DNA from: Myxococcota bacterium
GTDB lineage: Bacteria; Myxococcota_A; UBA9160; UBA6930
Direction: 5' to 3'
Length of the DNA stretch: 64,000 nucleotides
Assembly: GCA_965223415.1 (NCBI GenBank)
Contig: OZ245002.1
Span: 2,816,001 to 2,880,000, forward strand
Part shown: positions 39,780 to 60,218 of the stretch, one piece after another
How positions within the stretch are numbered: position 1 is the stretch's first letter
Layout: each line of letters begins with the position of its first letter
Notes under the pieces: model-generated
Database searches by the model: none
Seen by the model: only the letters and a program-made list of their open reading frames with translations
Told to the model about the DNA's origin: nothing
Position numbers and translations under genes: made by a program

Positions 39780-40144
39780 TCGCGCTCGCGCCGGATCCTG
39801 ACGCCCGCGTGCTCGAGCACGCCGGCGATCGGCGAGGGCTTGCGGACGGTGATCGTCACCGCGTCCACGCCGAACTTCGCGAGCACCGCATCGGCGATCC
39901 GCTGGCCCAGAGCCTCGACCAGCTTGTGCTCCTGGTTGGAGGCGACGTCCGCGGCGATCTCGAAGATGCGCTTGTAGTGGATGGTCTGCTGGATGCGATC
40001 GCTGGCGCCGGCGGCGCGCAGATCCGTCTCGACCTCGATGTCCAGGCGCACGGGCCGGCGCATCCTGCGCTCGGCGGCGGTGACACCGAGGGCGGCGGGC
40101 ACCTGGATGCCCTCCAGCAGGATGGTGTCGCGGTGGTCGGCCAT
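39776..40144 (-). CDS. folB: Dihydroneopterin aldolase
   Basis: DTILLEGI...GV..AER..., DRI..TIHY, KLVEAL, VRKP. Confidence 0.85.
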   Translation of the reverse strand: MADHRDTILLEGIQVPAALGVTAAERRMRRPVRLDIEVETDLRAAGASDRIQQTIHYKRIFEIAADVASNQEHKLVEALGQRIADAVLAKFGVDAVTITVRKPSPIAGVLEHAGVRIRRERE

Positions 40145-40187
40145 GGGGGGTAAACATACCTCCTTTCCCTGGCCCCAGGAGCACCCC

Positions 40188-41372
40188 ATGAGCTTCGACG
40201 AGATCCAGCGGCGAGAGGCGCGCCACTTCCTCCCCGTCGTGAACCGCATGCCGGTCGCGCTGGTGGAAGGCCGCGGCTCCCGCGTGGTGGACGTGGAGGG
40301 CCGGGAGTACGTCGACCTCACGGCGGGCTGGGGCGTGTGCTCGATCGGCCACTGCCACCCGGCCCTCGTGGAGGCGATAAGCGAGCAGGCGGGGCGGCTG
40401 ATGCAGACGACGAACCTGTTCTACACCCTGCCCCAGCTCGACGCCGCCGAGACCCTGGCGGCGGTCTCCCCGGACGAGCTCACGCGGGTCTTCTTCGTGA
40501 ACTCGGGCACCGAGGCGGTGGAGGGCGCCCTCAAGCTCGCCCACCGGGCGACCGGGCGCAGCCACTTCGTCTCCACCGCCCAGTCGTTCCACGGCCGCAC
40601 CCTGGGCGCGCTCTCGGTGATCGGCCAGGCGAAGCACCGGGATCCCTACCGGGACCTGCTGCCCGAACCGGTCGTCGTGCCCTTCGGCGACGCCGACGCG
40701 GCCGTCGCCGCCATCGACGAGCAGACCGCGGCGGTGATCGTCGAGCCAGTGCAGGGCGAGGGCGGCGTGAACGTCGCGCCCGAGGGCTACCTGACGCGGC
40801 TGCGCGAGCGCTGCACCGAGACCGGCGCGCTGCTGATCCTCGACGAGGTGCAGACGGGCATCGGCCGCACGGGCAAGATGCTCGCCCTCGAGCACGACGG
40901 CGTCGTGCCCGACGTGCTCACCCTCGGCAAGGGCCTGGGCGGCGGCTTCCCCGTCGCCGCGTTCCTGTGCAGCGAGGGCGTGGCCGAGACGGTGACCCCC
41001 GGCGACCACGGCGGCACCTACATCGGGAGCCCGCTGGCGACGGCGGCGGTGAACGCGGTGCTAAAGGTGGTGCAGGAGGACAAGCTCGTGCAGCGCTCCG
41101 CGGAGGTGGGGGAGAAGCTGGCGGCACGGCTGCGCGCCTACGCCGAGGCGAATCCGGACAAGGCGGAAGGCGAACGGGGCCGGGGACTGCTGCGCGGCCT
41201 CGTGCTGCGCGACGCCGAGGCCGCCGCGACGATCCCGCGTCGCGCCCTCGAGAAGGGCATCCTCGTGAACGTCACCGCCGGCAACGTGATGCGCTTCTTC
41301 CCGGCGCTGAACGTCCCGGAGGACGATCTCTTCGACTCGGTGGAGACGCTGCTCGGGCTGGTGGACGCGTGA
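40188..41372 (+). CDS. argD: Acetylornithine aminotransferase (class III PLP)
   Basis: FFVNSGTEAVE, SFHGRT, EPVQGEGG, DEVQTGIGRTG, LGKGLGGG, DHGGT; AGGAG SD. Confidence 0.82.
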   Translation: MSFDEIQRREARHFLPVVNRMPVALVEGRGSRVVDVEGREYVDLTAGWGVCSIGHCHPALVEAISEQAGRLMQTTNLFYTLPQLDAAETLAAVSPDELTRVFFVNSGTEAVEGALKLAHRATGRSHFVSTAQSFHGRTLGALSVIGQAKHRDPYRDLLPEPVVVPFGDADAAVAAIDEQTAAVIVEPVQGEGGVNVAPEGYLTRLRERCTETGALLILDEVQTGIGRTGKMLALEHDGVVPDVLTLGKGLGGGFPVAAFLCSEGVAETVTPGDHGGTYIGSPLATAAVNAVLKVVQEDKLVQRSAEVGEKLAARLRAYAEANPDKAEGERGRGLLRGLVLRDAEAAATIPRRALEKGILVNVTAGNVMRFFPALNVPEDDLFDSVETLLGLVDA

Positions 41373-42106
41373 AGCGCTTCCTGATCGGGCTCTCCGTCAC
41401 GGTCAACCTGCTGGTGCTGGCCGGTGCGATCTGGGTCGCGACGGGCGCGCCCCTGCGCGCCGCGGTCCGCGCCTTCGTCCAGCCCGCCCACGACCGCTGG
41501 GTGAGCCAGTTCGCCGTGCTCCCCGTGCAGCCCGGCGACGTCGTCTTCCTCGGCGACTCCATCACAGAGGGCGGCGCCTGGGAGGAGCTCTTTCCGGACG
41601 TCCCCGTCCGCAACCGCGGCATCGGAGGCGACCGCACGCCGGGCGCGCTCGAGCGCCTCGATCAGGTGACGAAGGGCCAGCCGGCCAAGGTCTTCCTGAA
41701 GATCGGCACGAACGACCTCTTCGTCGGCACGCCGGAGGAGGAGATCGCCGCCAACATCGGAACGATCCTCGAGCGCATCGCCAGCGAGTCCCCCGAAACG
41801 AGGGCCTACGTCCAGAGCGTGCTCCCCCGCCAGGCCGAGTGGCGCGAGGCCGTCGAGTCCCTGAACCGCCGCCTCGAAGCCGTCGCCGGCGAGCACGGCG
41901 CCACCTGGGTCGACCTCTACCCCCTCTTCCTCGACCCCGACGACGGCTCGATCCGGGACGACCTCGCCAACGACGAGCTGCACCTGCTGGGCAAGGGCTA
42001 CCTGGTCTGGCGCGACCACATCGACGAGTTGGTCACGAAACGGGGCGAGTTAAGAAGCGGGGCCAGAGTTAAGAATTCAGTTCCCCTTGGGGAACTGAAT
42101 TCTTAA
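41369..42106 (+). CDS. GDSL/SGNH lipase-esterase
   Basis: GDSIT, NRGIGGD, IGTND, DELH; C-terminus runs into the palindromic repeat. Confidence 0.88.
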   Translation: MKRFLIGLSVTVNLLVLAGAIWVATGAPLRAAVRAFVQPAHDRWVSQFAVLPVQPGDVVFLGDSITEGGAWEELFPDVPVRNRGIGGDRTPGALERLDQVTKGQPAKVFLKIGTNDLFVGTPEEEIAANIGTILERIASESPETRAYVQSVLPRQAEWREAVESLNRRLEAVAGEHGATWVDLYPLFLDPDDGSIRDDLANDELHLLGKGYLVWRDHIDELVTKRGELRSGARVKNSVPLGELNS

Positions 42107-42129
42107 CTCTGGCCCCGCTTCTTAACTCG
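42046..42129. repeat. Perfect 41-bp inverted repeat (REP-like palindrome, copy 2)
   Basis: CGAGTTAAGAAGCGGGGCCAGAGTTAAGAATTCAGTTCCCC-tt-reverse complement; shares its core with 9112-9178. Confidence 0.9.
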
Positions 42130-42955
42130 GTGGGGTCTCGTGCTTGCCGAGGGTCAGGACTTCGGGGCCGTCCTCGGTCACGAGGATGGTGTGCTCCCAC
42201 TGAGCGGAGAGCTTCCCGTCGACGGTGACAGCGGTCCAACCGTCGTCCAGGACCTCGGTCTTCCAGTGGCCCAGGTTGATCATCGGTTCGATCGTGAAGG
42301 TCATGCCGGCGCGCAGGCGGGGGCCGCTGCCGGGGGTGCCGTAGTGGAGCACCGAGGGCGGGCCGTGGAAGTGGCGGCCGATGCCGTGGCCGGTGAACTC
42401 GCGGACCACCTGGTAGCCCTGGGCCTCGGCGAAGCTCTGGATGGCGTGACCGATGTCGCCGACGTAGCTGCCGTCCTTCACGCTGCGGATGCCGAGCCAC
42501 ATGGAGTGCCAGGTGTCCTTCACGAGCTGGCGGGCCACGGGCGAGACGTCACCGATCAGGAAGGTGCGGGAGGAATCGCCGTGCCAGCCCTCCAGCCTGG
42601 GCGTGACGTCGACGTTGACGATATCGCCTTCGCGCAGCACCCGACCCTCGTCCGGGATGCCGTGGCACACCACGTCGTTGACCGAGGTGCAGCAGTGGCC
42701 GGGGAAGGGCGGCGTGCCGTGGTTCACGTACTGGTAGGGCGCGCTGACGGCGCCTGCGGAGCGGGTCATCTCGTCCACGGCGCGGTCGACGGCGGCGGTG
42801 GTGACGCCGGGGCCGATCATGTCCGCTACCGCGTCCAGGATCTCGCTGGCCAGGCGGCCGGCGGCCCGCATACCGCCCGCCTCCTCCGGCGAGAGGAGCG
42901 GCGAGATCGACTTCGGGCGTCCGCTCTGCCGACTCTTCTTCTTGTTCTTCTTCAT
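42122..42955 (-). CDS. map: Methionine aminopeptidase type I
   Basis: CTSVNDVVCHGIP, GDIVNVD, HGD.SRT, FTGHGIG, FTIEPM, SAQWEHT. Confidence 0.95.
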   Translation of the reverse strand: MKKNKKKSRQSGRPKSISPLLSPEEAGGMRAAGRLASEILDAVADMIGPGVTTAAVDRAVDEMTRSAGAVSAPYQYVNHGTPPFPGHCCTSVNDVVCHGIPDEGRVLREGDIVNVDVTPRLEGWHGDSSRTFLIGDVSPVARQLVKDTWHSMWLGIRSVKDGSYVGDIGHAIQSFAEAQGYQVVREFTGHGIGRHFHGPPSVLHYGTPGSGPRLRAGMTFTIEPMINLGHWKTEVLDDGWTAVTVDGKLSAQWEHTILVTEDGPEVLTLGKHETPPS

Positions 42956-42981
42956 CCGCACGAGACCCAGGAGGATATCGG

Positions 42982-45900
42982 CTACACGGCGCCGTCGCTC
43001 AACTCCTCCCGGAGGAGCCCGATCAGGTAGGGCCGCATGCGGGAGGGCTCGACGATCTCCTCCAGGGAGCCCACCTCGAGGGCGCGCTGCACAGAGTGGA
43101 TCTCGTCGAACTCCTGGGCCAGCTCGGCCTGCTTCTCGAGGGTGACGTCGGCCAGCACCTGCTCGTAGGCGGCCCGCCCGTTCTCTCGGCCCCGCGGGCG
43201 CGCGGCAAGCACCCGCTCGTCGGCGGCGGCCCGGGCCCGCACCTCCCGGGGGAACACCACCGCCGCGGCGGGCCCGCCGCCGATCACCGAGGCGTAGGAG
43301 CCGGAGAGGGCGGCGGCCCGCAGGCGCGGGTTCAGCTCGCGGGAGAACACCACGTAGGCGCCGCCGTGATAGCGGGACACGACGAGGAAGAGGATCGGCC
43401 CGTCGAAGTTCACGACGGCGCGCGCGATCTCGGCGCCGTACTCGAGCTGGAGCTTGCGCATCGATTCCGGCGAGCCGTCGAAGCCCGAGAGGTTGGCGAG
43501 GATCACCGCCGGCCGGTTGCCGCTGGCCGCGTTGAGCGCCCGTGCCACCTTCTTGGACGAGAGGGGGAAGAGCGTCCCGCCGGTCCAGGCGTTCGGCCCG
43601 TCCGCCGGGTGGTAGCCTTCTCGCGCCATGCTCTGGCTCTCGATGCCGATCAGCGTGACCGGCGTGCCGCCCAGGTGCGCGTCCCACACGATCGCCATCT
43701 CGGCGCCGACCCAGCCGCGCCAGCGCTCGAGCTGGCCGCCGTCCCGGTCGACCACCGCCTCCATCAGCGGGCGCATCGGGAAGGGGCGCTTGCGGCCCGG
43801 GTTGGTGGCGTCGTCGAAGATCTCTCCGACGCTCGCGAACCCGCCACTCGCCGGATCGAGCGTGACGTCCCGCGCGTCGGTGTCTGTCGTCTCCAGCGGG
43901 CGCGGACGCGCCTCCCCGGGCACGATGTAGCTGTAGCGGTAGTGGTCGTAGAGGATGCGGTAGGCGTCGCCCAGATCGTTGGCGAAGTACTGGGCCTCGC
44001 CGTTGGGGCCCATGATGCGCTCGAAGCCGCCGATCGCCGCCTCGTCCTCGGCGGAGACGGCGCCGGACGCCTCCAGCGCCGCGCGACCGGTGAGCACCAT
44101 CGAGGCGCCCTGGGTCATGATCAGCACGCCCTTGGTGTGCATCAGCATCGTCGCGAGGGAGTCCCAGTAGCTCTGGGCGCCCACGTTCACGCCGGCGACG
44201 ATCACGTGGATCGTGCCGCCGGCTTGGGTGAAGCGGATGATGCGCCGCACCACGCGGGCGGTGGCGTCCAGGTTCTCGGTGCCGCTGTCCATGGCGATGC
44301 GGGCGCCGCTCGAAACCGGGATCCACTCTACGGGGACGCGCAGCTCACAGGCCAGGTCGATGGCCGCCTCGATCCGGGCACACTCGGCGTCGGCCAGGGA
44401 GCCCATGCCCTGGGTGGGATCCGAGAGCACGACCACGCGCTTCATGCCCTCGGGCACCTTCTCGGTGGGCGTCGTCATCACGCCGAACACCACCGAGCAC
44501 TCGTTGCGCCCGTAGGGACGGCCGGAGCAGGGGAGTGCCCGGGGCGCCTCCGCCTGGGGGTCCAGGTCGTACTCGACGAAGCTCCCGGCCGGCAGCCGCG
44601 TGTCCGGATCGCTGCCGTCGCCCTGGCTGCCGGACAGCATGCGGATGATCTCGTAGGGGTAGACGAGTCGGCGGCGGCGGGCCTCGACGACGCGCCGCTC
44701 GTACTCGCTGCGCGGAGAGAGTGCGCCCTCCCGCGGCTTTCGCCACTGGATCGTCATGTTGGCGCCGGTGATGTCGGAGATGACGATCTCGGTCGGTCGC
44801 GAGGGCGCCTCCGGTGCTGCGCGATCCAGGAGCCGCAGGCGCACCACGACCTTCTCGAGCCCGAGGTTGCGGGTGGCCGGCGCGAGCCTGCGGGAGAGCC
44901 GCTCGGCGATCTCGGGATCGAGGAAGACCTCCGGCGCCACGTACACCTGGATGCGGTTCCACTGCAGCCGGCGCTTGGGATCGCGATCGGCGAGCATGCC
45001 GCGGAGCGAGCGCGTCGCCTCGAAGAAGGTGTGCTCGAAGGCGGCCACGTGCAGCGCCGCTTCGCGGCGATCGTCCGGCGAGCGGCTGCGCATGTCGGCC
45101 AGCACGAGGAGCCGCTCGTCGCCCTCCACCTCGCGGCTTCGCCCGTGGAAGCAGTAGACATCCTCGGGGCCCGGCACCCGCTCCAGCTCGAAGTTCCCCA
45201 GCCGGTCGAGATCGATGCGCGCCGCCGCCTCGGGATGGATGCCCAGGTAGGAATCGTCGGCGCGGAAGCCCGTCGGCGTCGGCGCCCAGGTGCGGTGCAG
45301 CGGCGCGCCCTCGCCGCGGATGCCGCTCAGCGTGAGCCGGCCGGCGGGAAGACCGTGACCCAGCACGTCCTCCGCTGCGCGGCCCACCTCCTCGAAAACC
45401 TCTTCCTCGTCGCCACCGGCGAGGGGCACGAAGAGCTCGATCGCGTACACGGCGGGCCACTCGTGGCTGTCCCGCGCAGCGGACGCAGCCTTGACGAGCT
45501 CGCTGGCGATTTCGCCAGTGCGCTCGGGCAGGGCAGTGCCCGCCAGCACGACGCGGCCGCCGGGGAACTCGACGCGCTCCACCCAGTGATCCGCGGCCCG
45601 CTGCGATGCCTGGGCCAGCGGCGAGGCGGGCGAGTAGACCCGACGCAGGTGGCTCGCCAGGGCGATCGAGCGGCGGCGCGGGTCGGGATCGCCGAGCCAC
45701 CGGCCGACCCGGTCGAAGACGGCGCGGGGCGCGTCGGCCAGGTGGAAGAGCACCTCCTCCGGCGGCGCAGTCGGGGCCGACTCGGCCGCCTCGAGCCAGG
45801 CCGTCACCTCCTTGGTGGTGCTCTCGGCCAGACGCTCGATCTCCGGGCGCTCGAAGATCTGGTAGCGGGCGAGGGTCGCGGCGTCGGCCACGGCGTGGGA

Positions 45901-48570
45901 GACGAGGCCGCGCATGCCGGCGATGGTGTCGAGGGCGTCCGCCAGCGCGCGGTCGCCGCCCAGGTGAACGCCCTGTTGGGCGAGCAGCGATGCCCGGCGC
46001 AGGAGGGCCAGCACCAGACGGTCCCGGTGCTCGGGCTCGAGCTGGCTCGCCAGCAGCCGCAGCACGGCGCGCTCGAGGGCGTCGCTGGGCTCCAGCGTCG
46101 CGATGCCGTAGTGGGCGAGGGCGCGCCGCACCAGGTCCAGGTAGTCCTCGGCGAGGCCGGCGCCTGCGGCCCGCAGTCGGCGCACGAACATCCGAAGCCG
46201 CGCGGCGTTGGAGGGGCCCTGATCGCCGGAGACCGAAGCGGCCGGCGAGCGGATGAAGAGCGTCGCCACGTCGGCAAAAGTCACGAGCTCGTTGCGCAGA
46301 TCGGCCAGCTCCCAGCGGAAGCCCTCGCTGAGCCCTTCGGGCAGCGGCGCCTCGAGGAAGGCGGCCAGGCGGTCGGCCCGCTCGGGATTGGCGTCGTAGC
46401 CGAGCAGCACGCGGCGCACCTCGTCGCGCACCGCGAGGGTGGCAGCCCGGCGGATCGCCCGCGGCGTGGCGTCGGCGGCGACGAGATCCGGCCGGCCGAG
46501 CCTCAGCTCCCCCTCGGCAGCGAAGAGCGGCTCGAGCGGATCCGGCAGCTCCTCGAGGGCAATGCGCGTCGAGACGTGCTCCCCGTCTTCGCTCTCGGCG
46601 GACGCGTCGATCACCAGGATCACGTCGCCGGCGGCCACCTGCTCGCCCTTGCGGACGCGCACCTCGCTGACGACGCCGGCGACCGGCGCCTCGAAGGAGA
46701 CCTCCATCTTCATCGCCTCGAGGAGGCCCAGGGGCTGGCCGGCCCGCACGCTCTCGCCGGGCTCCACGTGCACCGCCACCACCATCGCCGGCGCCGCCGC
46801 CCGCACCTGGCCGGCGGTCTGGGAGCCGAAGCGGTGGGTGCGGCCCTCGACCTCGACGCGCAGGCCCGTCTCGGTGACGTCGTAGAGCAGGCGATAGGTG
46901 CGACGCCCGATCTGGAGCCGCGCCGTGTGCTCGCCCTCCTCGCGCAGGGTGGCGGCCACGACGCGGCCGTCGAGGTGCACCCGGTAGCGCCAGCCGCCCA
47001 CCGCGAAGACACCCAGCCGGTACTGGTCGCCTTCGTGGGTGAGAAGGGTTTCCTGGCCCTGGGAGGCGGGGACCCGACCCGGCGCGAGGTTCCCCGGATC
47101 CGCGAACACGTTGAGCCTCGCGATCGCCCGGTTGCGCTGGTAGGAGAGGATCGACGCGGCGACCAGCGCCGGCACCGCATGTTCGCGCTCGGCCTTCGCG
47201 GCGACCAGGCGATCGAGCCAGGTCGTATCGACGCCGCCGGCGCGGAAGTCCTCGTGCTCGAGGATCTCCAGCAGGTAGCCCTTGTTGGTCGTCCCGCCCT
47301 CGATCACCAGGTCGAAGTCCGAGAGCGCCGAGGCCAACCGCGCCCGCGCCTCCTCGCGGGTCGCGCCGGTCGCGATGACCTTCGCGACGAGGGAGTCGAA
47401 GGCCGGGGGCACCTCGCTCCCGGCGGCGACGCCGGAATCGAGCCGCACCCGCGGGCCCAGGGCGGGATCGAAGCGGGCGATGCGGCCGGGGGCCGGCAGG
47501 AAGCCGGCGTCCGGATCCTCCGCGCACACCCGCGCCTCGATCGCCGCTCCGTCCTTCCGGATCTCGAGGTGCGCGATCGTTTCGCCACGGGCGATGCGGA
47601 TCTGCGTCTGGACCAGGTCGACGCCGGCGATCTCCTCGGTGATCCCGTGCTCGACCTGCAGGCGCGGGTTCATCTCGAGGAAGAAGAGATCGTCCCCGGA
47701 GACCAGGAACTCGACGGTGCCGACGCCCTCGTAGCCCACGCGCTCGGCCAGGCGCACGGCGTCGGCCTCGAGGCGCTCGACCTGGGCGTCGGTCAGGTGG
47801 GGCGGCGGCCCCTCCTCGATCACCTTCTGGTGGCGGCGCTGGACCGAGCAGTCGCGGCAGCCGATCGCACGCACCACGCCGTCGCGATCGGCCGCGATCT
47901 GCACCTCGATGTGGCGGCCGCCTTCGACCTTCTTCTCCAGGAAGAGCCGGCCGTCTCCGAAGGCGCTCTCGGCTTCGGCGGCGGCGGATCGGTAGGCCTC
48001 GGCCAGCTGGTCCGGGGTGTCGACGACGCGGATGCCGCGGCCGCCGCCGCCGGCGGACGCCTTGATCACCAGCGGGTAGCCGATGCGCTCGGCGTGCTGC
48101 TCCGCGTCCTCCAGGGCGGCGAGCTCGCCGCCGCTCCAGGCGGTCACCGGCACGCCGGCGCGCTCCGCCAGACGCTTCGAGCCGATCTTGTCGCCGAGGG
48201 CGCGCATGGCGTCCGCACCAGGGCCGAGGAAGCGGATGCCCTCCGCCGCCAGACGCTCGACGAAGCGGGGATGCTCCGCAACGAAGCCCCAGCCCGGCCA
48301 GACGGCGTCGGCCTGGGCCTTGCGCAGGGCGGCCACGAGCCCGTCGTGGTCGAGGTAGGCGGCGACCTCGCCGTTCGGCGAAGGCAGGAGCACCGCGTCG
48401 TCGGCGTGACGGACGAAGGGCGCGTCTCGGTCGATCTCGGTGTAGAGGGCGACGGCACGCAGCTCCGACGCCTCCTCGCTGCGCAGCGCCTTGATGGCGC
48501 GGATGCAGCGCATCGCTGCCTCGCCCCGGTTCACGATGGCGATCCGCTCGATGGGCTCGAAGCGGTTCAC
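42982..48570 (-). CDS. Single-chain multidomain acyl-CoA carboxylase (BC-BCCP-central region-CT), ~1862 aa
   Basis: BC motifs NRGE, KASAGGGGRG, RDCSVQRRHQK, EMNPRLQVEH; biotinylation EAMKM; CT motifs SSGARI, ANLSGFDGS, GGAYVV; GTG start overlaps the PPTase stop. Confidence 0.9.
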   Translation of the reverse strand: MNRFEPIERIAIVNRGEAAMRCIRAIKALRSEEASELRAVALYTEIDRDAPFVRHADDAVLLPSPNGEVAAYLDHDGLVAALRKAQADAVWPGWGFVAEHPRFVERLAAEGIRFLGPGADAMRALGDKIGSKRLAERAGVPVTAWSGGELAALEDAEQHAERIGYPLVIKASAGGGGRGIRVVDTPDQLAEAYRSAAAEAESAFGDGRLFLEKKVEGGRHIEVQIAADRDGVVRAIGCRDCSVQRRHQKVIEEGPPPHLTDAQVERLEADAVRLAERVGYEGVGTVEFLVSGDDLFFLEMNPRLQVEHGITEEIAGVDLVQTQIRIARGETIAHLEIRKDGAAIEARVCAEDPDAGFLPAPGRIARFDPALGPRVRLDSGVAAGSEVPPAFDSLVAKVIATGATREEARARLASALSDFDLVIEGGTTNKGYLLEILEHEDFRAGGVDTTWLDRLVAAKAEREHAVPALVAASILSYQRNRAIARLNVFADPGNLAPGRVPASQGQETLLTHEGDQYRLGVFAVGGWRYRVHLDGRVVAATLREEGEHTARLQIGRRTYRLLYDVTETGLRVEVEGRTHRFGSQTAGQVRAAAPAMVVAVHVEPGESVRAGQPLGLLEAMKMEVSFEAPVAGVVSEVRVRKGEQVAAGDVILVIDASAESEDGEHVSTRIALEELPDPLEPLFAAEGELRLGRPDLVAADATPRAIRRAATLAVRDEVRRVLLGYDANPERADRLAAFLEAPLPEGLSEGFRWELADLRNELVTFADVATLFIRSPAASVSGDQGPSNAARLRMFVRRLRAAGAGLAEDYLDLVRRALAHYGIATLEPSDALERAVLRLLASQLEPEHRDRLVLALLRRASLLAQQGVHLGGDRALADALDTIAGMRGLVSHAVADAATLARYQIFERPEIERLAESTTKEVTAWLEAAESAPTAPPEEVLFHLADAPRAVFDRVGRWLGDPDPRRRSIALASHLRRVYSPASPLAQASQRAADHWVERVEFPGGRVVLAGTALPERTGEIASELVKAASAARDSHEWPAVYAIELFVPLAGGDEEEVFEEVGRAAEDVLGHGLPAGRLTLSGIRGEGAPLHRTWAPTPTGFRADDSYLGIHPEAAARIDLDRLGNFELERVPGPEDVYCFHGRSREVEGDERLLVLADMRSRSPDDRREAALHVAAFEHTFFEATRSLRGMLADRDPKRRLQWNRIQVYVAPEVFLDPEIAERLSRRLAPATRNLGLEKVVVRLRLLDRAAPEAPSRPTEIVISDITGANMTIQWRKPREGALSPRSEYERRVVEARRRRLVYPYEIIRMLSGSQGDGSDPDTRLPAGSFVEYDLDPQAEAPRALPCSGRPYGRNECSVVFGVMTTPTEKVPEGMKRVVVLSDPTQGMGSLADAECARIEAAIDLACELRVPVEWIPVSSGARIAMDSGTENLDATARVVRRIIRFTQAGGTIHVIVAGVNVGAQSYWDSLATMLMHTKGVLIMTQGASMVLTGRAALEASGAVSAEDEAAIGGFERIMGPNGEAQYFANDLGDAYRILYDHYRYSYIVPGEARPRPLETTDTDARDVTLDPASGGFASVGEIFDDATNPGRKRPFPMRPLMEAVVDRDGGQLERWRGWVGAEMAIVWDAHLGGTPVTLIGIESQSMAREGYHPADGPNAWTGGTLFPLSSKKVARALNAASGNRPAVILANLSGFDGSPESMRKLQLEYGAEIARAVVNFDGPILFLVVSRYHGGAYVVFSRELNPRLRAAALSGSYASVIGGGPAAAVVFPREVRARAAADERVLAARPRGRENGRAAYEQVLADVTLEKQAELAQEFDEIHSVQRALEVGSLEEIVEPSRMRPYLIGLLREELSDGAV

Positions 48571-49184
48571 GCGCGGGCCTCCCGCCACCAGGCGCCCGCG
48601 CCCTGGCGCAGGTCGGCGGCGAAGGCCACGAAACCGCCGTGGTGGGAGAGGGAGAGGTCCACGTCCACGGGCTCGCCGGCGGCCAGGACGACCGGGATGC
48701 GTCCGACCCGGTCGATCTCGAGCTCCTCGGCGGGAAGCTCGAGCCGGGTCGCGAGCTCCCGGCGCACCCGGGCGCGCAGGGCCTTGCCCGCGAGCGCTTC
48801 GCCGCCGTCCCAGGCCACGACCTGCAGCAGCACTTCGCCCCCGTCGGGCTCCTCGTCGCTGGCGATCGCGTGGAGGCGACCCTGCGCTTCGTCGACCGTC
48901 ACGGGCAGGGTGCCCCCCGGATGACGGACGACTCCACGCAGGGTCGCATCCAAATCGACTTCGAATCGCGGCGGCGAGAACACGGCGCGGCGATCGAGCT
49001 TGCGAGCCACTTTGTAGGCCGCCTCCTTCGCGGCCCAGAAGATCCAGCGCAGCCGCTCCGGCGCGCCGCTCGCGCGGAGCGACTCGAGCTCGGCGGGCGA
49101 GAAGACGCGGGCGTCCCAACGCGGATGCCGACCCGGAGCGTGCACCTCCGGGTCCCCGAGATCGACGACGTCATTGCCGATCAT
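48567..49184 (-). CDS. 4'-phosphopantetheinyl transferase superfamily protein
   Basis: MIGNDVVDL, WAAKEAAYK, SLSHHG. Confidence 0.85.
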   Translation of the reverse strand: MIGNDVVDLGDPEVHAPGRHPRWDARVFSPAELESLRASGAPERLRWIFWAAKEAAYKVARKLDRRAVFSPPRFEVDLDATLRGVVRHPGGTLPVTVDEAQGRLHAIASDEEPDGGEVLLQVVAWDGGEALAGKALRARVRRELATRLELPAEELEIDRVGRIPVVLAAGEPVDVDLSLSHHGGFVAFAADLRQGAGAWWREARA

Positions 49185-49923
49185 CGAAGTGCCTCGCTTC
49201 CATCTCGGCCAGCTGGCCGACGATTTGGCGCGCCAGGTCGACGGAGCCCCGCAACCCCTTGTGGTCGGTCTTCGGCTCGAGCACGCTCGAGGTGACGTCG
49301 AAGACGTCGCCCCGGGCCGGCGAATCCGTCCACGTCTCCTGACGCCGTCCGCGCAGGTAGACGCAGAGGACGCGGCACCCAGGAACCGTGCTCACGAGGC
49401 GCCCGACACCGTAGGCCGCTCCCTCATGGTCGACGCGTCCCGTGCGGCTCCTGCCGCCTTCCGGGAAGATCAGCACCGATTCGCCTCGGCCGAGCAGGAA
49501 GCCGACCTTCTCGAGCGTCTTCGCCACCTCGGCGCGATCGGAGCCACGCTTCACGGGCACGCACTTGAGCAGGTAGACCAGCGCCCGCTTCCACCAGGTG
49601 GAGGCGAAGTTCAGCTCCTCCGGCGTGTTCCAGGGCAGCCAGTGGAAGTGGCGCAGAAAGGTGCCCATCCCTCCGAGTGCCCAGGCGATGGCGAAGGAAT
49701 CGAACATCGTCAGGTGGTTCGCGCACACGAGAACCGGCGCGTCCGACTCGCTGCGGAGTCGGGCGTACTCCCGCCGCACGCGATCCGCTCCCTCCAGCCG
49801 CCACCGCATCACGAAGACCATGATGGCGGTGAACGCCGGGATCCACAGGAGCGAGAGCCCCCGACTGATCCGGAGCTGGAGGAGCAGCGCGCGACGATCC
49901 CTCGCCTCGAGCGCGTTCGCCAC
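49171..49923 (-). CDS. Lysophospholipid acyltransferase (PlsC family)
   Basis: NHLTMFD (HX4D), IFPEGGRSRTG. Confidence 0.88.
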   Translation of the reverse strand: MANALEARDRRALLLQLRISRGLSLLWIPAFTAIMVFVMRWRLEGADRVRREYARLRSESDAPVLVCANHLTMFDSFAIAWALGGMGTFLRHFHWLPWNTPEELNFASTWWKRALVYLLKCVPVKRGSDRAEVAKTLEKVGFLLGRGESVLIFPEGGRSRTGRVDHEGAAYGVGRLVSTVPGCRVLCVYLRGRRQETWTDSPARGDVFDVTSSVLEPKTDHKGLRGSVDLARQIVGQLAEMEARHFDDRQ

Positions 49924-49934
49924 GAAGGGATGCT

Positions 49935-50180
49935 CTAGAGCTTCTCGGCGATCAGCCCGACGCAGTCACCGACGGTGTTCACCGCGTCGACGTCCTCGTC
50001 GGCGATCTCGATGTCGAACTCGTCCTCGAAGGCGAGCACCACGTCGACCAGCCGGGCCGAGTTGACCTTCAGGTCCTCGAGGATGTTCGTGGCGCCGGAC
50101 ACGCTGGCCAGGGCGTCCTGGTCCTTCACATAGGGCGTCAGGATCTTCACCACGCGTTCCTGGATCTCGGTCGTTTCCAT
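49935..50180 (-). CDS. Acyl carrier protein (atypical NSA motif)
   Basis: 81 aa, acidic; DLKVNSARLVDVVLAFEDEFDIEI..TVGD. Confidence 0.9.
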   Translation of the reverse strand: METTEIQERVVKILTPYVKDQDALASVSGATNILEDLKVNSARLVDVVLAFEDEFDIEIADEDVDAVNTVGDCVGLIAEKL

Positions 50181-50197
50181 CGTTCTTCTCCTTGGTG

Positions 50198-51481
50198 TCA
50201 GCTCTCGTAACGACGCAGCACCAATGCCGCGTTCACGTCGCCGAAGCCGAAGCCCGCCTTCACGAGGGTTCGCAGGTCCGGCGTGTCGAGGGTCTCGTGG
50301 GGAATCGAGGCCGCGTAGGGCTCGATCTCCGGGTGGACGTCCTCGCAGTTGATCGAAGGGTGCACGAAGCCACCGCGCAGCATCTGGATGGCCGCAATGG
50401 ATTCGATCGCGCCGGCGGCGCCGAGGGCGTGCCCGATCATCGACTTGGTCGAGGTGATGGTCGGCAGGTCGTCGGGCTCGCGCTCGAGGGCGGCGGCCCA
50501 GGAGCCGACCTCCTTCGGGTCGGCGCCGGTGGCGGTCAGGTGGCCGCTGATCGCGTCGACCTCGGCCGGCGCTACGCCGCCGTCGTCCAGGGCGCCGCGA
50601 ATGCAGCGGCGCACGCTCTCCGGGTTCGGCGCCGTCATGCTACCGCCCATGCGATGGCCGCCGCAGTTCGTGGCGCCGCCGAGCAGCTCGGCGTGGATGG
50701 TCGCGCCCCGCTCCTGGGCGCTCTCGAGGCTCTCGAGCACGACCATTCCCGCCCCGGCGCCGGGGATGAAGCCACCGGCCGAGGCGCTCATGGGCCGGGA
50801 GGCCTTCTCGGGCTCGTCGTTGAAGCCGCGACAGAGCACGCGCATCGCGTCGAAGCCCGCCCAGATGTAGATGCTCGCACCCTCGACTCCGCCGCAGACC
50901 ATGCGCTTCGCCAGCCCGCGCCGGATGCGATCGAAGCCCATCACGATCGCCTCGACGCCGGTGGCGCAGGCGGTGGAGTTCGTCGTGACGGAGCCTCCCA
51001 GGGCGAGGATGCCGGAGACCCGCGCCGAGACGCCGCTGGCCATCACCTGCTCCACCCCCGTGGAGCCGATCCGTCGGACCTTCTTCGCCTCCACCAGCGG
51101 CACGACGCGCTCGGCCATGGTGTCGATGCCGCCCACCCCGGTGCCGATCACGGCGCCGGTGTCCCAGTCGACCGCGTCGTCCGCCGCGTCGGGCACGGCG
51201 AAGCCCGCGTCCTGCCACGCCTCGACCGACGCCAGGGCGGCGAAGCGATGGGAGCTGTTCATGGCCAGCTGGAGCTCCTCGTCGAAGGTCGCGGCGACGA
51301 GCTCGTCGGTGCCTTGGGGTGCCCCGGAGACGTGACAGGCCAGCTTCGCCTCGATCATCGTCTCATCGACCCGCAGGCCGCTCTTGCCCTTGCGCAGGGC
51401 GAGCTCGAACTCCCGCGCCCCGTTGCCGTTCGGCGCCACGACGCCCAGGCCCGTGACGACCACCCGATGACGTTCACTCAT
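50198..51481 (-). CDS. fabF: Beta-ketoacyl-ACP synthase, FabF/KAS II-like
   Basis: RVVVTGLG, TACATG (Cys), SGHLTAT (His), TKSMIGH (Lys/His), GFGFG. Confidence 0.85.
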   Translation of the reverse strand: MSERHRVVVTGLGVVAPNGNGAREFELALRKGKSGLRVDETMIEAKLACHVSGAPQGTDELVAATFDEELQLAMNSSHRFAALASVEAWQDAGFAVPDAADDAVDWDTGAVIGTGVGGIDTMAERVVPLVEAKKVRRIGSTGVEQVMASGVSARVSGILALGGSVTTNSTACATGVEAIVMGFDRIRRGLAKRMVCGGVEGASIYIWAGFDAMRVLCRGFNDEPEKASRPMSASAGGFIPGAGAGMVVLESLESAQERGATIHAELLGGATNCGGHRMGGSMTAPNPESVRRCIRGALDDGGVAPAEVDAISGHLTATGADPKEVGSWAAALEREPDDLPTITSTKSMIGHALGAAGAIESIAAIQMLRGGFVHPSINCEDVHPEIEPYAASIPHETLDTPDLRTLVKAGFGFGDVNAALVLRRYES

Positions 51482-51939
51482 TTCGGCACTCCGATGCCGG
51501 CGAGCTGGCCCGAGCACACGACCGTGCCGTCCTCGAGCCGCATCTCGACCTCGGCCTTCAGCTTCTTACGCCGCCAGAAGACCGGCTTCGTGAGCGTGAG
51601 CGTACGGTCTCCGGGCCGCACCATGCCCGAGTATTCGACGTTGCATTCGGTAAAGATCGTGTGAAATTTTGCCGCCTCGTCCTCACCGAAGTCGCGATAG
51701 GTGAGGTACATGGCGTACGGCACCATCCCGCACTGGGCCATCGACTCCACCAGCAGCACACCCGGCGTGACCGGATCGCCCGGGAAGTGGCCCTTGTAGA
51801 AGTCGCTCTCGGGATCCCAGCGGTAAGCGGAGAGGATGTGCTCGTCGTCCATCTCGAGGATCTCGTCGATGAACCGGAAGGGGTGCTGCTGGGGGATCAG
51901 CGCCAGTGCCTCCGCAGGAGTGAGGATCCTACCCGCCAT
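51478..51939 (-). CDS. fabZ: 3-hydroxyacyl-ACP dehydratase, FabZ-like
   Basis: [30 protein letters not shown]. Confidence 0.85.
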
Positions 51940-52660
51940 ACATGCCTCCGTTCACGTGGAGGACGGTTCCGTTCACGTAGGTCGCCCGGGTCGCGAGCCA
52001 GGCGACGGCATCGGCCACCTCCTCCGGCGCACCCATGCGACCCTGCGGGATCTTGTCGAGAATGCCCTGCCGGATCTCGTCCGGCAGCTGGTCGGTCATC
52101 TCGGTGGCGATGAAGCCCGGCGCCACCGAGTTGACCAGGATCGGTCGGCCCGCCAGCTCCTGGGCGATCGACTTGGTGAACGCGTCGAGCCCTGCCTTCA
52201 CCATCGTGTAGGCGGACTGGCCGCGGTTGCCCGTGTGCCCCACGACGCTCGAGATGTTGACGATGCGGCCGGACTTCTGACGCAGCATGAAACGGCGGAT
52301 CACACACTTGGTGAGGTACCAGGTGCCCCGCGCCATCGCGGCCACGGCGTCGTAGTCCTCGAGCTTCATCGCCGGGAGCGGCGCGTTGCGGTTGTAGCCG
52401 GCGTTGTTCACGAGCACGTCCACCCGGCCGGCCCGCTCCTTCAGCTCGGCGACCAGGCCGTCCACCTCCTCCGGGACGGTGATGTCGGCGCGCACAAGGA
52501 AGGCATCGGGCAGCTTCTCCGCCACCTCCTTCGCCTGGGCCTCGCTGGAGCGGTAGTGCACCGCCACGCGAAAGCCCTCGTCGGCCAGGACCCGGGCGCA
52601 GGCCGCACCGATGCCCGTCCCGGCGCCGGTGACCAGGGCGATCTTCGTCTCGTCGCTCAC
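51929..52660 (-). CDS. fabG: 3-oxoacyl-ACP reductase, FabG-like
   Basis: TGAGTGIG, NNAG, SSVVG..GN.GQSAY...K, VAPGFI.TEMT, VNGGM. Confidence 0.85.
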   Translation of the reverse strand: MSDETKIALVTGAGTGIGAACARVLADEGFRVAVHYRSSEAQAKEVAEKLPDAFLVRADITVPEEVDGLVAELKERAGRVDVLVNNAGYNRNAPLPAMKLEDYDAVAAMARGTWYLTKCVIRRFMLRQKSGRIVNISSVVGHTGNRGQSAYTMVKAGLDAFTKSIAQELAGRPILVNSVAPGFIATEMTDQLPDEIRQGILDKIPQGRMGAPEEVADAVAWLATRATYVNGTVLHVNGGMYGG

Positions 52661-53652
52661 GATCCCTCCTCGAAGCGGAGCAGGGCGCGACCCCAGGTGA
52701 GGCCGCCGCCCACGGCGACCATGGCGACGTCGTCGCGGGGACCGAACTTCTCCCAGCTCATGGAGACGGCCGCGGGGCAGCTGGCCGAGCCCGTGTTGCC
52801 GCGCAGCTCGACGTTGTGGTGGTGCCGGTCGGGGGCCACGTCGCAGCGCTGGCACACCTGCTCGAGCACCCGCATGTTGGCCTGGTGGCCGGCAAAGTGC
52901 AGATCGCGGCTCGCGTCGGTGAACTCCGCCTTCAGCTCCTCGAGGCCGTCGCGGGTCTTCTTGATGGCGAACATCTGCACCGCGCGGCCGTCCTGCTCGA
53001 AGAAGTCGGTGCGCGGGATCGTCACCTTGTCCGCGTTGCCCGGGTTCGAGTCCATGGCGACGCCGAGCAGACGGGCGGGCCCTGGCACGCGCGGTGAGAG
53101 CACGGCGGCGGCGGAGCCGTCGCCGAAGAGGACCGCGCTCGCCCGATCCTCGTAGCTCAGGGTCTTCGTCAGGGACTCGTTCGCGATGGCCAGCACGAAG
53201 TCCGGCAGGGCGTCCGAACGCATCGAGGCGACGAACCACAGCTGGGCCAGGAAGCTCGTGCACGCGGAGTTCACGTCGAAGACCGGCGCTTCGATCCCGA
53301 GCTCCTTGGCGACGAAGCCTGCCTCGGCGGGACACACCAGGTCCGGGGACGAGCTACCGGAGAGCACCATGCCCACCTGCTCGGGGCCGATGCCCGCGCG
53401 CTGCATGGCGAGCCGCGCCGAGCGAGCGCCGAGCTGCCAGCTCGTGAGCTCCGCCGCCTCGTCGGCGGCGCGCAGATCCCGGTTCCGGGTCTCGCGGATG
53501 TAGTCGAGGGACAGGACCGTGCGCCGGGAGCGGATCCCGACCCGCTCGACGATCCAGTCGTCGTTCGTCCCGATGTCGAGCTCCTCGAGGAAGCCGTTCG
53601 AGATCTCGTTCTCGGGATGGAAGTGTCCGAACCCGTGGACCCACACGTTCAC
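52657..53652 (-). CDS. fabH: Beta-ketoacyl-ACP synthase III, FabH-like
   Basis: WIVERVGI..RR, SACTSF (Cys), LFGDG, HQAN (His), GNT (Asn), GGGLTWG. Confidence 0.85.
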   Translation of the reverse strand: MNVWVHGFGHFHPENEISNGFLEELDIGTNDDWIVERVGIRSRRTVLSLDYIRETRNRDLRAADEAAELTSWQLGARSARLAMQRAGIGPEQVGMVLSGSSSPDLVCPAEAGFVAKELGIEAPVFDVNSACTSFLAQLWFVASMRSDALPDFVLAIANESLTKTLSYEDRASAVLFGDGSAAAVLSPRVPGPARLLGVAMDSNPGNADKVTIPRTDFFEQDGRAVQMFAIKKTRDGLEELKAEFTDASRDLHFAGHQANMRVLEQVCQRCDVAPDRHHHNVELRGNTGSASCPAAVSMSWEKFGPRDDVAMVAVGGGLTWGRALLRFEEGS

Positions 53653-54605
53653 GCGGTGCCTCCGGAGATGTGCTCGCCGCCGTCGATGCGGATCACCTCG
53701 CCGTTGATCCAGGCGGCCTCGGGCTGACACATCAGGTAGACCACGTTGGCCACGTCCTGGGGCGTCGTGAGCCGGCGGTAGGGGTTGCGAAGCCGGGCAT
53801 GGGCGCGCATGTGCGCGTCGCCGGGAATCGCGGCCTGGGCCGGGGTGTGGGTCACGCCGGGCTGGAGCACGTTGCAGCGCACGCCGTAGGCCGCGTACTC
53901 CACCGCCACCGACCGTGCGACCGACTCGAGAGCCACCTTGGCCGCCGCCACCGCAGCGTAGCCCTTCCACGCCGTGACGTTGCCTTCACTCGTCAGCCCG
54001 AAGACCCGCGCGTCGTCGGCGAAGAGCTGCCGTTCGTGCAGCGCCTGCACCCAGTCGATCAGGCTCGTGCCCATGCTGTGGATGGTGCGGGTGAAGTCCT
54101 CGCTGTCTAGGTACCAGCGGTCGGAGTACTCGGGAGCCGAGGCGATCTCCGCCATCTCGTCGACGCCGTCCTCGAAGAGCCGGTCCGCCGCCTCGCGCAG
54201 CTTCGCCTCGTCCACGCCCAGGGCTTCCGCCAGCCGCGCCGTCGCGGGATTCGGCGGTTTTCGCTCGGGGACCAGCAGCTTCAGGTTCCCGAAGGCGATC
54301 GAGTGGAGGAGCATGCGCACGCGCCCGGTCTCGCCCATGGCGGAGGCCAGCTCTGCGATCAGCTCCGCCTGCTTCTCGGCGGAGAGAGCGTCGGCGTTGC
54401 GCGCGACCAGCTGCACGCCGTGGCCGCGGATCTTCTCGAACTCGGGCTCGATGCGCGCCATTGCGCCACGGCGATCGCGATGGATCACGCACAGGTTCAT
54501 GCCGTGGGCGGCGAGCTTCTGGGCTGTCGCCAGGCCGAAGCCGCTCGATCCGCCGAGGATCACTCCCCAGTCGTCGGCGCTGAACTGGTTTTCGGGATTG
54601 CTCAC
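53649..54605 (-). CDS. Enoyl-ACP reductase-like SDR (FabI/FabL type) with internal insertion
   Basis: GGSSGFG, LHSIA, TSEG..YAAVAAAK (YX6K), INGEVIRIDGG. Confidence 0.78.
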   Translation of the reverse strand: MSNPENQFSADDWGVILGGSSGFGLATAQKLAAHGMNLCVIHRDRRGAMARIEPEFEKIRGHGVQLVARNADALSAEKQAELIAELASAMGETGRVRMLLHSIAFGNLKLLVPERKPPNPATARLAEALGVDEAKLREAADRLFEDGVDEMAEIASAPEYSDRWYLDSEDFTRTIHSMGTSLIDWVQALHERQLFADDARVFGLTSEGNVTAWKGYAAVAAAKVALESVARSVAVEYAAYGVRCNVLQPGVTHTPAQAAIPGDAHMRAHARLRNPYRRLTTPQDVANVVYLMCQPEAAWINGEVIRIDGGEHISGGTA

Positions 54606-54675
54606 CCCATTCCTCCTGAGCTGGAACCGGAGTCGCGTCGCGCGCCGAACCTAACGCATTGCGTTATCGGCGTCA

Positions 54676-54720
54676 TGACTGCCGGTCACCCCCTCCGGCC
54701 AGGAGGATGACTGAGAGTCA
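54676..54720. promoter_or_regulatory. Pair of TGAC-N5-GTCA palindromes (candidate repressor operators of the lipid operon)
   Basis: TGACTGCCGGTCA at 54676 and TGACTGAGAGTCA at 54708, 32 bp apart. Confidence 0.5.
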
Positions 54721-54886
54721 ATCGATGTCAACGGCGCTTCGGTGACTCCTCGCAGACCGATCGAGCAAGCCGTGTGCCGCTCTTCACGAATGCGAACTCA
54801 TCCCCTCCAAGTACCGGATTCTAGGCACCTTTCCGTGATGCCGGTATGAATGCCGTCCCCACGGGACCCCGACGTTCCATGCAGGC

Positions 54887-55657
54887 TCAGCCCATCCAGG
54901 CGCCATTGTTCGGATCGAGGGCCTGGCCGGTGAATCCGACGCCGGCCGGCGAGAGCAGGAAGGCCACCAGACCGGCGATCTCCTGGGGCTCGCTGATGCG
55001 CTGGAGGGGCACGTCGTCGAGCAGCTGCCGGCGCATGTCCGCATAGGGCCGCCCCTCCAGGTCGCCGAGCTCGGTCATTCGGTCCACCGCCATCCGGGTC
55101 TCCACCCAGCCGGGACAGATCGCGTTGACCCGCACCTGCTTCGGCGCGAGCTCCGCGGCCAGGGAACGCACGAGGCCGAGCTGGCCGGCCTTCGCTGCGC
55201 TGTAGGCGGAGATGCCGGGGACGCCGAAGCGCGCCACGCACGACGAGATCACGATCGCGTGCTTCGGCCCGTCGCCGGGCGCCAGGTGGTCCTCGAAGGC
55301 GCGAAGCGTGAAGTAGGCGCCGTCGAGGTTCGTGCGCACGATCGCGTCCCAGCGGTCCTCCCCGCCGTCGACGTCGTTGGGGCCACCGATGCCCGCGTTG
55401 GCCACCACGGCATGGAGCGGGCCGAGCTGCTCGCGGATGGCGGCGAAGGCCGCGTCGACGGCGCCGCGGTCCGCGACGTCGGCGGGAGCGACGAAGGCCG
55501 CGCCCTTCGCCTCGGCGGCCACCGCCTCGAGAGTCGCCCGGGTCCGCCCGATCAGGCCGAGCGCCGCGCCGTCCGCTGCGAGCCGGAGGGCGATGGCCCG
55601 ACCGATGCCGCTTCCGGCGCCGGTCACCACCGCCACCCGCCCGCGCTGGTCGACCAT
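54887..55657 (-). CDS. SDR family oxidoreductase
   Basis: TGAGSGIG, ANAG, YSAAK, CPGWVET. Confidence 0.9.
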   Translation of the reverse strand: MVDQRGRVAVVTGAGSGIGRAIALRLAADGAALGLIGRTRATLEAVAAEAKGAAFVAPADVADRGAVDAAFAAIREQLGPLHAVVANAGIGGPNDVDGGEDRWDAIVRTNLDGAYFTLRAFEDHLAPGDGPKHAIVISSCVARFGVPGISAYSAAKAGQLGLVRSLAAELAPKQVRVNAICPGWVETRMAVDRMTELGDLEGRPYADMRRQLLDDVPLQRISEPQEIAGLVAFLLSPAGVGFTGQALDPNNGAWMG

Positions 55658-55666
55658 GAGGCGAGG

Positions 55667-60101: not shown

Positions 60102-60218
60102 AGGGGGGTCCTCCTCTGGTGGAGCGCAGACGGTACCAGAAACGCAGACGGGCAGGGGCCTGGGCCCCCGCCCGTCCGAAGATCGCATTGCGGGCCGCGA
60201 GGGCCCGCTCCGACGTCG

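Follow-up and report, generated by a model that had tools for sequence, protein, structure and literature searches.

The window analysed here, a stretch of 64,000 nt from contig OZ245002.1 of a Myxococcota bacterium (positions 2,816,001 to 2,880,000), carries on its minus strand an operon of nine genes (window positions 42982-54605). On balance, we read this operon as probably encoding an accessory type II fatty-acid synthase (FAS) with a private acyl carrier protein (ACP) and an off-loading acyltransferase, which in this lineage seems to be co-transcribed with the eukaryote-type acetyl-CoA carboxylase (ACC) of the cell. The genes are tightly coupled, their products have intact catalytic residues, and their order is conserved among relatives. 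They coexist in the genome with canonical FabH, FabD, AcpP and FabF. The set of FAS genes is referred to as the cassette, and most of its proteins are marked with a prime.

The window has a G+C content of 70-73%, and raw lists of open reading frames (ORFs) are full of false frames. Families were assigned from Pfam profile matches above cut-off, housekeeping orthology was judged by NCBIfam equivalog cut-offs, and start codons were re-set for KS3', FabG' and the carboxylase. The first gene codes for ER_SDR (53649-54605), a short-chain dehydrogenase/reductase (SDR) of 318 aa with a GGSSGFG Rossmann motif and a putative enoyl-ACP' reductase. It is followed by KS3' (52657-53652), a FabH-like initiating ketosynthase with ACP_syn_III and C-terminal domains, the GTG start of which overlaps the ER_SDR stop codon (GTGA), and by the 3-oxoacyl-ACP reductase-like SDR FabG' (51929-52660), which overlaps the KS3' stop codon, again as GTGA. 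Next come FabZ' (51478-51939), a divergent 3-hydroxyacyl-ACP dehydratase (PF07977, 65.5 bits) and the sole FabZ-like gene of the genome, the elongating ketosynthase KS' (50198-51481) with ketoacyl-synt N and C domains, and the carrier ACP' (49935-50180) of 81 aa (PP-binding, 26.3 bits). The last three genes code for AT' (49171-49923), an LPLAT/PlsC-family acyltransferase (PF01553, 52.1 bits) with an N-terminal hydrophobic helix, for PPT' (48567-49184), a 4'-phosphopantetheinyl transferase (PPTase) of 205 aa (PF01648, 39.6 bits versus a cut-off of 25), and for a single-chain carboxylase of about 1860 aa (42982-48570), the GTG start of which overlaps the PPT' stop codon. All nine have a Pfam match above cut-off. 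Six of the eight junctions are overlaps (four of the GTGA or ATGA type, the others of 11 nt and 14 nt) and the remaining two are gaps of 17 nt and 11 nt. An initial interpretation of the window (referred to as the sequence-only reading) had listed these enzyme kinds as nine co-oriented, overlapping or near-touching genes, and this description is borne out by the profile matches and the junctions. In a scan of 41800-56000 no promoter-like sites were found, and a single terminator-like hairpin lies inside the carboxylase gene versus 3.1 expected from shuffled sequences, but such scans are uninformative in DNA of 70% G+C.

All cassette proteins score below the NCBIfam equivalog cut-offs of their housekeeping counterparts and have nevertheless kept their catalytic residues, the conservation of which was counted in 95-235 relatives of each enzyme (64 in the case of the carboxylase). 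ER_SDR scores 138.6 bits with adh_short_C2 and 30 bits with Enoyl_reductase PF12241 (cut-off 22.1), and its best equivalog-type match, FabL, scores 103 bits versus a cut-off of 328. It has the motif Y216-AAVAAA-K223, with the tyrosine conserved in 93 of 95 and the lysine in 94 of 95 relatives. We take this Y-x6-K spacing to be that of FabI/FabL-type enoyl reductases, so that ER_SDR, as a putative enzyme, appears to carry the enoyl-ACP reductase signature. KS3' reaches 152.9 bits with TIGR00747 (149.2 bits in the genome scan; cut-off 292.1) and has an intact Cys-His-Asn triad (Cys 180/180, His 186/186, Asn 186/186). FabG' reaches 253.3 bits with TIGR01830 (cut-off 297.75), and its YxxxK motif is invariant (147/147 for both residues). 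For FabZ' the score is 67.1 bits with TIGR01750 versus 155.15; its GHFPG and LVESMAQ motifs, aligned to the FabZ structure 6n3p, retain the active-site His (222/223) and Glu (223/223).

KS' falls short of both elongating ketosynthase models, with 280.7 bits versus 493.75 for FabF and 249.9 bits versus 630 for FabB, and it scores about equally against solved structures of FabB (ca. 184-190 bits) and FabF (ca. 165-191 bits). Its triad C172, H314 and H351 is conserved (Cys 230/231, His 235/235, His 234/234). In a tree, KS' belongs to a distinct clade which a long branch separates from the genome's own FabF. ACP' scores 46.2 bits with TIGR00517 (cut-off 70.45) and carries the motif DLKVNSARLVD, with N-S where AcpP has D-S; the motif is kept over 198 distinct sequences from 230 loci. 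AT' shows the motifs NHLTMFD (HX4D) and FPEGGRS, with H, D and R each conserved in 197 of 197 relatives, and scores 34.8 bits with the AGP_acyltrn model TIGR00530 (cut-off 102.95). It has 2342 relatives at E<=1e-10, and the names given to its homologues and to ESM Atlas clusters are generic. PPT' matches no NCBIfam family, while its GNDxxD and KEA motifs are conserved across relatives.

The genome to which the window belongs is available as a single contig of 5.83 Mb (97% complete), which was searched for fabD and canonical fab genes. There is exactly one match to FabD (349.4 bits, contig positions 134257-135123), and it is grouped with acpP and a canonical fabF (552.5 bits) at 132.7-135.1 kb. 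A canonical fabH (343.8 bits, above cut-off) stands apart at 1.499 Mb. Two PPTases were found, one of them PPT'. PF01553 has 15 matches above cut-off, AT' among them, and 16 at E<=0.001. The cassette is thus a second set of ACP, elongating ketosynthase, ketosynthase III (KSIII), acyltransferase and PPTase beside canonical FabH, FabD, AcpP and FabF, and the proposal of the sequence-only reading that a dedicated second FAS is present has gained support. The absence of a malonyl-CoA:ACP transacylase (MAT) from the operon, which had also been pointed out, holds as well. It is most simply explained by the single FabD encoded elsewhere: supply in trans, one of the earlier suggestions, agrees with this gene content and with cassettes from Syntrophales that have a MAT of their own, while the unusual loading route offered as an alternative is not needed.

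The genome contains two further ketosynthase regions, at approximately 3.493-3.510 Mb and 4.938-4.946 Mb, which look like aryl-polyene-type clusters as judged from the N-termini of ORFs and from PF01553 and ketosynthase matches. In these regions lie genes of the LPLAT family and one for a large membrane protein, together with what are likely a glycosyltransferase, a lipoprotein carrier, an FAD-dependent oxidoreductase and an AMP-ligase.

From the enzymes present, the cassette may be expected to work as follows. The carboxylase would provide malonyl-CoA, PPT' would convert apo-ACP', at its VNSARL site, into the holo form, and the FabD encoded elsewhere would place malonate on ACP'. KS3' would then condense an acyl-CoA primer with malonyl-ACP', and FabG', FabZ', the Y-x6-K SDR reductase and KS', with its Cys-His-His triad, would together make up an elongation cycle on ACP'. 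Elongation on a carrier of its own would separate the chain from the AcpP pool. Finally, AT' would transfer the completed acyl chain from ACP' to a membrane acceptor of the lyso-glycerolipid type. In this scheme, the loading by FabD, the primer, the type of chain, the acceptor and the physiological role of the cassette are inferred.

The gene block is not a chance arrangement. A scan with KS', with one genome per species, returned 560 relatives, and the best 80 of these were used for locus counts. Genes were counted by clustering of ORFs, and many of the 80 loci end at contig ends. In these best 80 of 560 loci the order is (ER_SDR)-KS3-FabA-(FabG)-FabZ'-KS'-ACP'-AT-PPT-(carboxylase). Besides the ketosynthase itself (80/80), FabZ' is found in 78, KS3 and AT in 73 each, FabA (a gene of 200 aa between KS3 and FabG) in 67, PPT in 61, FabG in 54, and ER_SDR and the carboxylase in 38 each of the 80 loci; a FabD paralogue occurs in 16 and an acyl-CoA-dehydrogenase-type (ACAD) gene in 12. 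A second scan, seeded with KS' from Syntrophus buswellii, gave 80 loci, mostly from Syntrophales, with the order MAT-ACAD-KS3-FabA-FabG-FabZ'-KS'-ACP'-AT-PPT. Here AT was counted in 77, PPT in 73, FabA in 67, ACAD in 55 and MAT in 32 of the 80 loci, with the counts for MAT and ACAD limited by flanks of 6 kb. S. buswellii DM-2 has the complete cassette. Synteny is kept in both sets and, among the matches listed, in most of the 78 loci from a motif scan which is described below. Without FabA and MAT, but with FabG, the SDR reductase and the carboxylase, the window operon represents a derived version of this widespread cassette.

In Syntrophales (e.g. locus L072, 4834-12980), an acyl-CoA-dehydrogenase-type flavoprotein takes the place of the Myxococcota SDR reductase in 55 of the 80 loci. 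A FabD paralogue precedes this flavoprotein in 32 of the 80, and the copy of locus L065 scores 221.6 bits, below the cut-off of 260.9. Two sets of neighbouring genes were considered as further cassette parts and rejected: the cassette of Syntrophus is followed by Mla lipid-transport genes, which, however, occur in only 5 of 80 loci, and DegT and sugar-transferase genes follow one cassette from Longimicrobiales but are absent from the gene groups shared by at least 5 of the 80 loci.

According to the submitter labels, some of which are doubtful, the cassette is carried by Myxococcota, Gemmatimonadota/Longimicrobiales, Acidobacteriota, Binatia, Thermodesulfobacteriota and others. The KS' tree has three clades, from Bacteroidota, from Syntrophales and a mixed one, in which Gemmatimonadota- and Acidobacteriota-labelled loci interleave beside Myxococcota-type loci. 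Transfer of the cassette between phyla is likely. Several records labelled as Spirochaetaceae are placed among Myxococcota metagenome-assembled genomes and are near-identical to them, and some of the labels are probably wrong. Of the 201 genomes sampled from the phylum, 35 have a FabZ' orthologue (128 bits or more), and these 35 include all eight from the family of the window.

The carboxylase carries, on one chain, a biotin carboxylase (BC, residues 1-442; Biotin_carb_N, CPSase_L_D2 and Biotin_carb_C), a biotin carboxyl carrier protein (BCCP) region (Biotin_lipoyl, residues 580-643) with an AMKM biotin site (biotinyl Lys conserved in 64/64), a central region and a carboxyltransferase (CT, residues 1363-1839; Carboxyl_trans). 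The match of the central region to ACC_central (20.6 bits) is just below the cut-off of 23.2. For the CT part, the nearest solved structures are those of yeast and human ACC (71.1 bits for 3tv5), while bacterial beta subunits do not exceed 40 bits and none of the bacterial NCBIfam CT families fits.

The sequence-only reading had assigned this carboxylase to the operon as its own. This is not supported by its distribution. With residue 650 to the end as query, 36 of 41 genomes from the order gave orthologues, some of these genomes having two copies, and the idea of a carboxylase private to the operon was rejected on account of this spread. All five genomes of family f6 are among the 36. KS'-type matches were not seen in any of the five, and G088, which is one of them, is also without FabZ' or any other PF07977 protein. 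In the genome of the window, neither AccA nor AccD was found above cut-off. For these reasons the enzyme is probably the general acetyl-CoA carboxylase, and thus the malonyl-CoA source, of the order, co-transcribed with the cassette and not private to it.

Eukaryote-type single-chain carboxylases have been described for Actinobacteria, and the characterised enzyme nearest to that of the window, as far as the part of the source available to us goes, is SACE_4237 from Saccharopolyspora erythraea, an essential homodimeric acetyl/propionyl-CoA carboxylase of 200 kDa with the multidomain eukaryote-type architecture, which has been introduced into the E. coli accB(Ts) strain L8 (PMC6491548). Compared by description only, both proteins unite BC, BCCP, a central region and CT in one chain of about 200 kDa, the CT of SACE_4237 groups with eukaryotic ACCs and that of the window enzyme is nearest to these among solved structures, and both are likely to be the main malonyl-CoA source, the genome of the window having no AccA or AccD. 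They differ in that the window enzyme comes from a Myxococcota-type order instead of Actinobacteria and is in an operon with a FAS cassette. Its spread over this order is relevant to how the eukaryotic enzyme arose, and it raises the question what an order-wide eukaryote-type ACC means in that respect.

Several observations weigh against an accessory role, and together they make up the case for an alternative in which the cassette is the primary FAS or an indispensable part of it. FabZ', and possibly the SDR reductase and the carboxylase, would then serve bulk synthesis, and ACP', KS3' and KS' would be the main components or interchangeable with AcpP, FabH and FabF. FabZ' and an unlinked FabA are the only two PF07977 proteins of the genome, in which a canonical FabZ was not found. 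The latter exceeds the cut-off in 33 of the 201 phylum genomes, none of them from the order of the window, and was also not found in S. buswellii and two other carriers. A FabI orthologue is lacking from the genome as well (the best matches, YxxxK SDRs, share about 31% identity), and neither FabV nor, above cut-off, AccA and AccD were found there, which leaves room for a bulk role. Its presence in eight of eight sampled family genomes makes the cassette look more core-like than accessory, and it forms an operon with what is likely a general carboxylase, 26 nt upstream of a methionine aminopeptidase gene. Two further points bear on the proposed scheme rather than on the status of the cassette: the supply of FabD in trans is deduced from gene content, and, as AT' matches PlsC models only weakly, the glycerolipid acceptor is a guess.

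On the other side, canonical FabH, FabD, AcpP and FabF are all present, and the distribution within the phylum (35 of 201 genomes) is patchy. Neither the cassette nor any PF07977 protein is present in five genomes of the order (completeness 92-97%), which still keep a canonical FabF above cut-off. Bulk synthesis in this order must thus use another dehydratase, so that FabZ' and FabA need not be housekeeping enzymes; the housekeeping 3-hydroxyacyl-ACP dehydratase of the order is therefore of an unrecognised kind. At least eight proteins of the NMO/FabK family occur in the genome and the housekeeping enoyl reductase may be among them, which means that ER_SDR need not be the sole enoyl reductase of the cell. 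Among five other carriers, S. buswellii included, canonical FabF was found above cut-off in four and AcpP in four, and one carrier from Longimicrobiales has a canonical FabZ besides the cassette. We consider a primary FAS unlikely, but it is kept as an alternative in view of the missing bulk dehydratase. Which enzyme dehydrates 3-hydroxyacyl-ACP in an order that has FabF but lacks FabZ and FabA is a question raised by these data.

A feature that the sequence-only reading did not mention is FabA, which is normally encoded inside the cassette and is here unlinked. FabA proteins from within the cassettes of relatives score 200-208 bits, above the cut-off of 124 for the NCBIfam bifunctional dehydratase/isomerase. 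FabA is absent from the window operon, and the only copy of the genome (206 bits) stands alone at contig positions 769211-769852, which is 2.1 Mb from the cassette; it aligns with FabA from Escherichia coli through the active-site region with CHF and GCLG-D. Above cut-off, FabA occurs in 29 of the 201 phylum genomes, and all 29 are among the 35 carriers of FabZ' (none among the other 166). Within the family of the window, it was found in three of eight sampled genomes, always unlinked, and not in the other five. FabA is also lacking in Smithella-type and in Bacteroidota loci. As most relatives have FabA inside the cassette, the ancestral product was probably a cis-unsaturated chain made without oxygen. 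With FabA unlinked here, and lacking in most sampled genomes of the family, this lineage may make a saturated product, or FabA may be supplied in trans.

This leads to a second alternative, according to which the cassette is solely an oxygen-independent pathway of the FabA/FabB kind that provides cis-unsaturated chains for phospholipids. The same has been proposed, by homology and annotation, for an operon of Coxiella burnetii (CBU_0034-CBU_0038), which is listed as ACP, FabB, FabZ, FabA plus FabH and is described as having been acquired en bloc from a deltaproteobacterium or a spirochaete; transposon mutants of two of these genes, cited in the same source, grow more poorly in Vero cells (PMC5423948, consulted in part). 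Several of our results point in this direction: the scores of the in-cassette FabA and its alignment with the E. coli active-site region, its presence in 67 of 80 cassettes in each of the two locus sets, its restriction to genomes with the cassette (29/29), and the occurrence of the cassette in the strict anaerobes Syntrophus and Smithella. However, FabA is missing from the window operon and from the Smithella-type and Bacteroidota loci, and the cassette persists in all eight sampled family genomes although FabA was not found in five of them. KS' cannot be called a FabB as it scores equally against FabB and FabF, and the classical FabA/FabB branch has no need for a private ACP, PPTase and KSIII. 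As a complete account of the cassette, this alternative is also improbable.

The Coxiella operon is the closest published arrangement of which we are aware. Our literature search did not find the full cassette in print, only the five-gene core in the form of this operon, the description of which we saw in part (PMC5423948). Compared by gene order only, its FabH-FabA-FabZ-KS-ACP order equals the cassette core in most relatives, it lies beside a canonical fab cluster that was inherited vertically, and the suggested donor groups are the same. In contrast to the cassette, the five genes listed there include no acyltransferase, PPTase, reductases or carboxylase, and in contrast to them the window operon has no FabA. 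The matches listed from the motif scan described below (80 loci) contain no Coxiella records. All enzymes of the cassette are of known kinds, and the order of its core has already been printed at the level of annotation (PMC5423948), so that the earlier claim of an undescribed system holds for the full cassette, as far as the literature was seen, and not for its core.

Other systems share single traits with the cassette. E. coli-type FAS II with its FabA/FabB branch has the same enzyme families and catalytic residues, and FabA from relatives exceeds the equivalog cut-off. It differs in that the cassette proteins stay below the housekeeping cut-offs, in that KS' is neither clearly FabB nor FabF, and in that a private N-S ACP, a PPTase of its own and an LPLAT-family off-loader are united in one operon. 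The rhizobial cluster acpXL-fabZXL-fabF2XL-fabF1XL-lpxXL likewise has a private ACP, its own FabZ and ketosynthase, and delivers a special chain to a dedicated acyltransferase, but the latter is of the lipid A late-acyltransferase family and there are two FabF paralogues, whereas the window acyltransferase belongs to PF01553 and the operon has no pair of FabF paralogues. Myxobacterial polyunsaturated fatty acid (PUFA) synthases, which are multidomain Pfa proteins that end in an AGPAT domain, and the LPLAT-containing aryl-polyene clusters, which are based on a pair of ketosynthase and chain-length factor (KS/CLF) and use aryl starters, resemble the cassette in having a dedicated ACP, an Sfp-type PPTase, FabA- or FabZ-like dehydratases and LPLAT-family transfer onto a lysolipid. 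The cassette enzymes, however, are discrete, with a single elongating ketosynthase plus KSIII and a full reducing set. Aryl-polyene clusters are further characterised by aryl-starter activation, a glycosyltransferase and LolA/MMPL export genes, and none of these features, nor a KS/CLF pair, was found in the window operon or its flanks.

A degenerate DNA pattern scan for the KS' motif NCEDVHPE detected relatives of the cassette in Bacteroidota; the counts for this group are among the matches listed. Cultured Flavobacteriia were reached in this way (Maribacter, Polaribacter, Psychroserpens and Tenacibaculum). Their module consists of ER_SDR-FabZ'-KS'-ACP', often with a PPTase, and lacks KSIII and LPLAT. 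In 23 of 25 Bacteroidota-labelled loci it is immediately preceded by genes for an FAD oxidoreductase, a methyltransferase and a type III polyketide synthase (PKS), as exemplified by Maribacter stanieri DSM 19891 (locus L249, 5576-11306); Psychroserpens burtonensis DSM 12212 is another carrier of this PKS variant. Such loci resemble clusters for phenolic lipids of the alkylresorcinol type that have an acyl-ACP supply of their own. We found nothing specific on this variant in the literature. That a type III PKS takes the place of AT' here is in line with a module in which segregated acyl-ACP' is passed on to an off-loader of its own. A further alternative is that the window cassette itself provides the special acyl starter of a secondary-metabolite pathway (to a phenolic lipid or a polyene-like pigment, for instance) rather than building a membrane glycerolipid, and that AT' tethers or transfers the product. 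In its favour are this Bacteroidota coupling and the LPLAT off-loaders known from aryl-polyene clusters, but it seems very improbable given that no PKS, tailoring or export genes occur in or beside the operon, that a full reducing set of ketoreductase, dehydratase and enoyl reductase is present, and that the genome has aryl-polyene-like clusters of its own elsewhere.

Our preferred interpretation, an accessory FAS with a private carrier, can be extended, tentatively, to all carriers. FabZ'-KS'-ACP'(VNSARL)-PPT' might represent a portable orthogonal FAS module with an acyl pool that is closed to housekeeping enzymes, the fate of which is set by the off-loader: a defined membrane glycerolipid where this is an LPLAT protein (Myxococcota, Gemmatimonadota, Acidobacteriota, Syntrophales), and a phenolic lipid where it is a type III PKS (Bacteroidota). 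The form with FabA would then be a so far overlooked way of making unsaturated phospholipids without oxygen in lineages other than the alpha- and gamma-proteobacteria, and a carrier of its own would take the chain from acetyl-CoA through to the membrane. We regard this extension as possible rather than probable. If our reading is right, many uncultured bacteria labelled as members of several phyla run two separate fatty-acid assembly lines, the second with a private carrier protein and a lipid-attaching enzyme of its own. Myxococcota from soil and from the sea are among the carriers, as are Gemmatimonadota, Acidobacteriota and anaerobes with a syntrophic way of life. The second line would explain particular membrane lipids in lineages without classical FabA/FabB in the main pathway, unsaturated chains could form without oxygen where FabA is present, and a compact orthogonal FAS cassette would be at hand for engineering.

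The operon is flanked by further genes on the same strand. Upstream, these are another FabG-like SDR at a distance of 281 nt (54887-55657), a fusion of a DinG-type helicase with an RNase T-like exonuclease (55667-58441) and a thiamine pyrophosphate (TPP) enzyme (58455-60188). Downstream, a methionine aminopeptidase (42122-42955) follows after 26 nt. Among the 80 loci, methionine aminopeptidase is a neighbour of the cassette in 22 and the TPP enzyme in 20 cases, which is probably lineage synteny. Further downstream, a long ORF on the minus strand (39333-41009) ends in a GNAT domain and has a weak match to the N-acyl amino acid synthase FeeM (22.7 bits versus a cut-off of 27). It is overlapped by a long ORF on the plus strand (40337-42106) with a GDSL lipase domain at its end.

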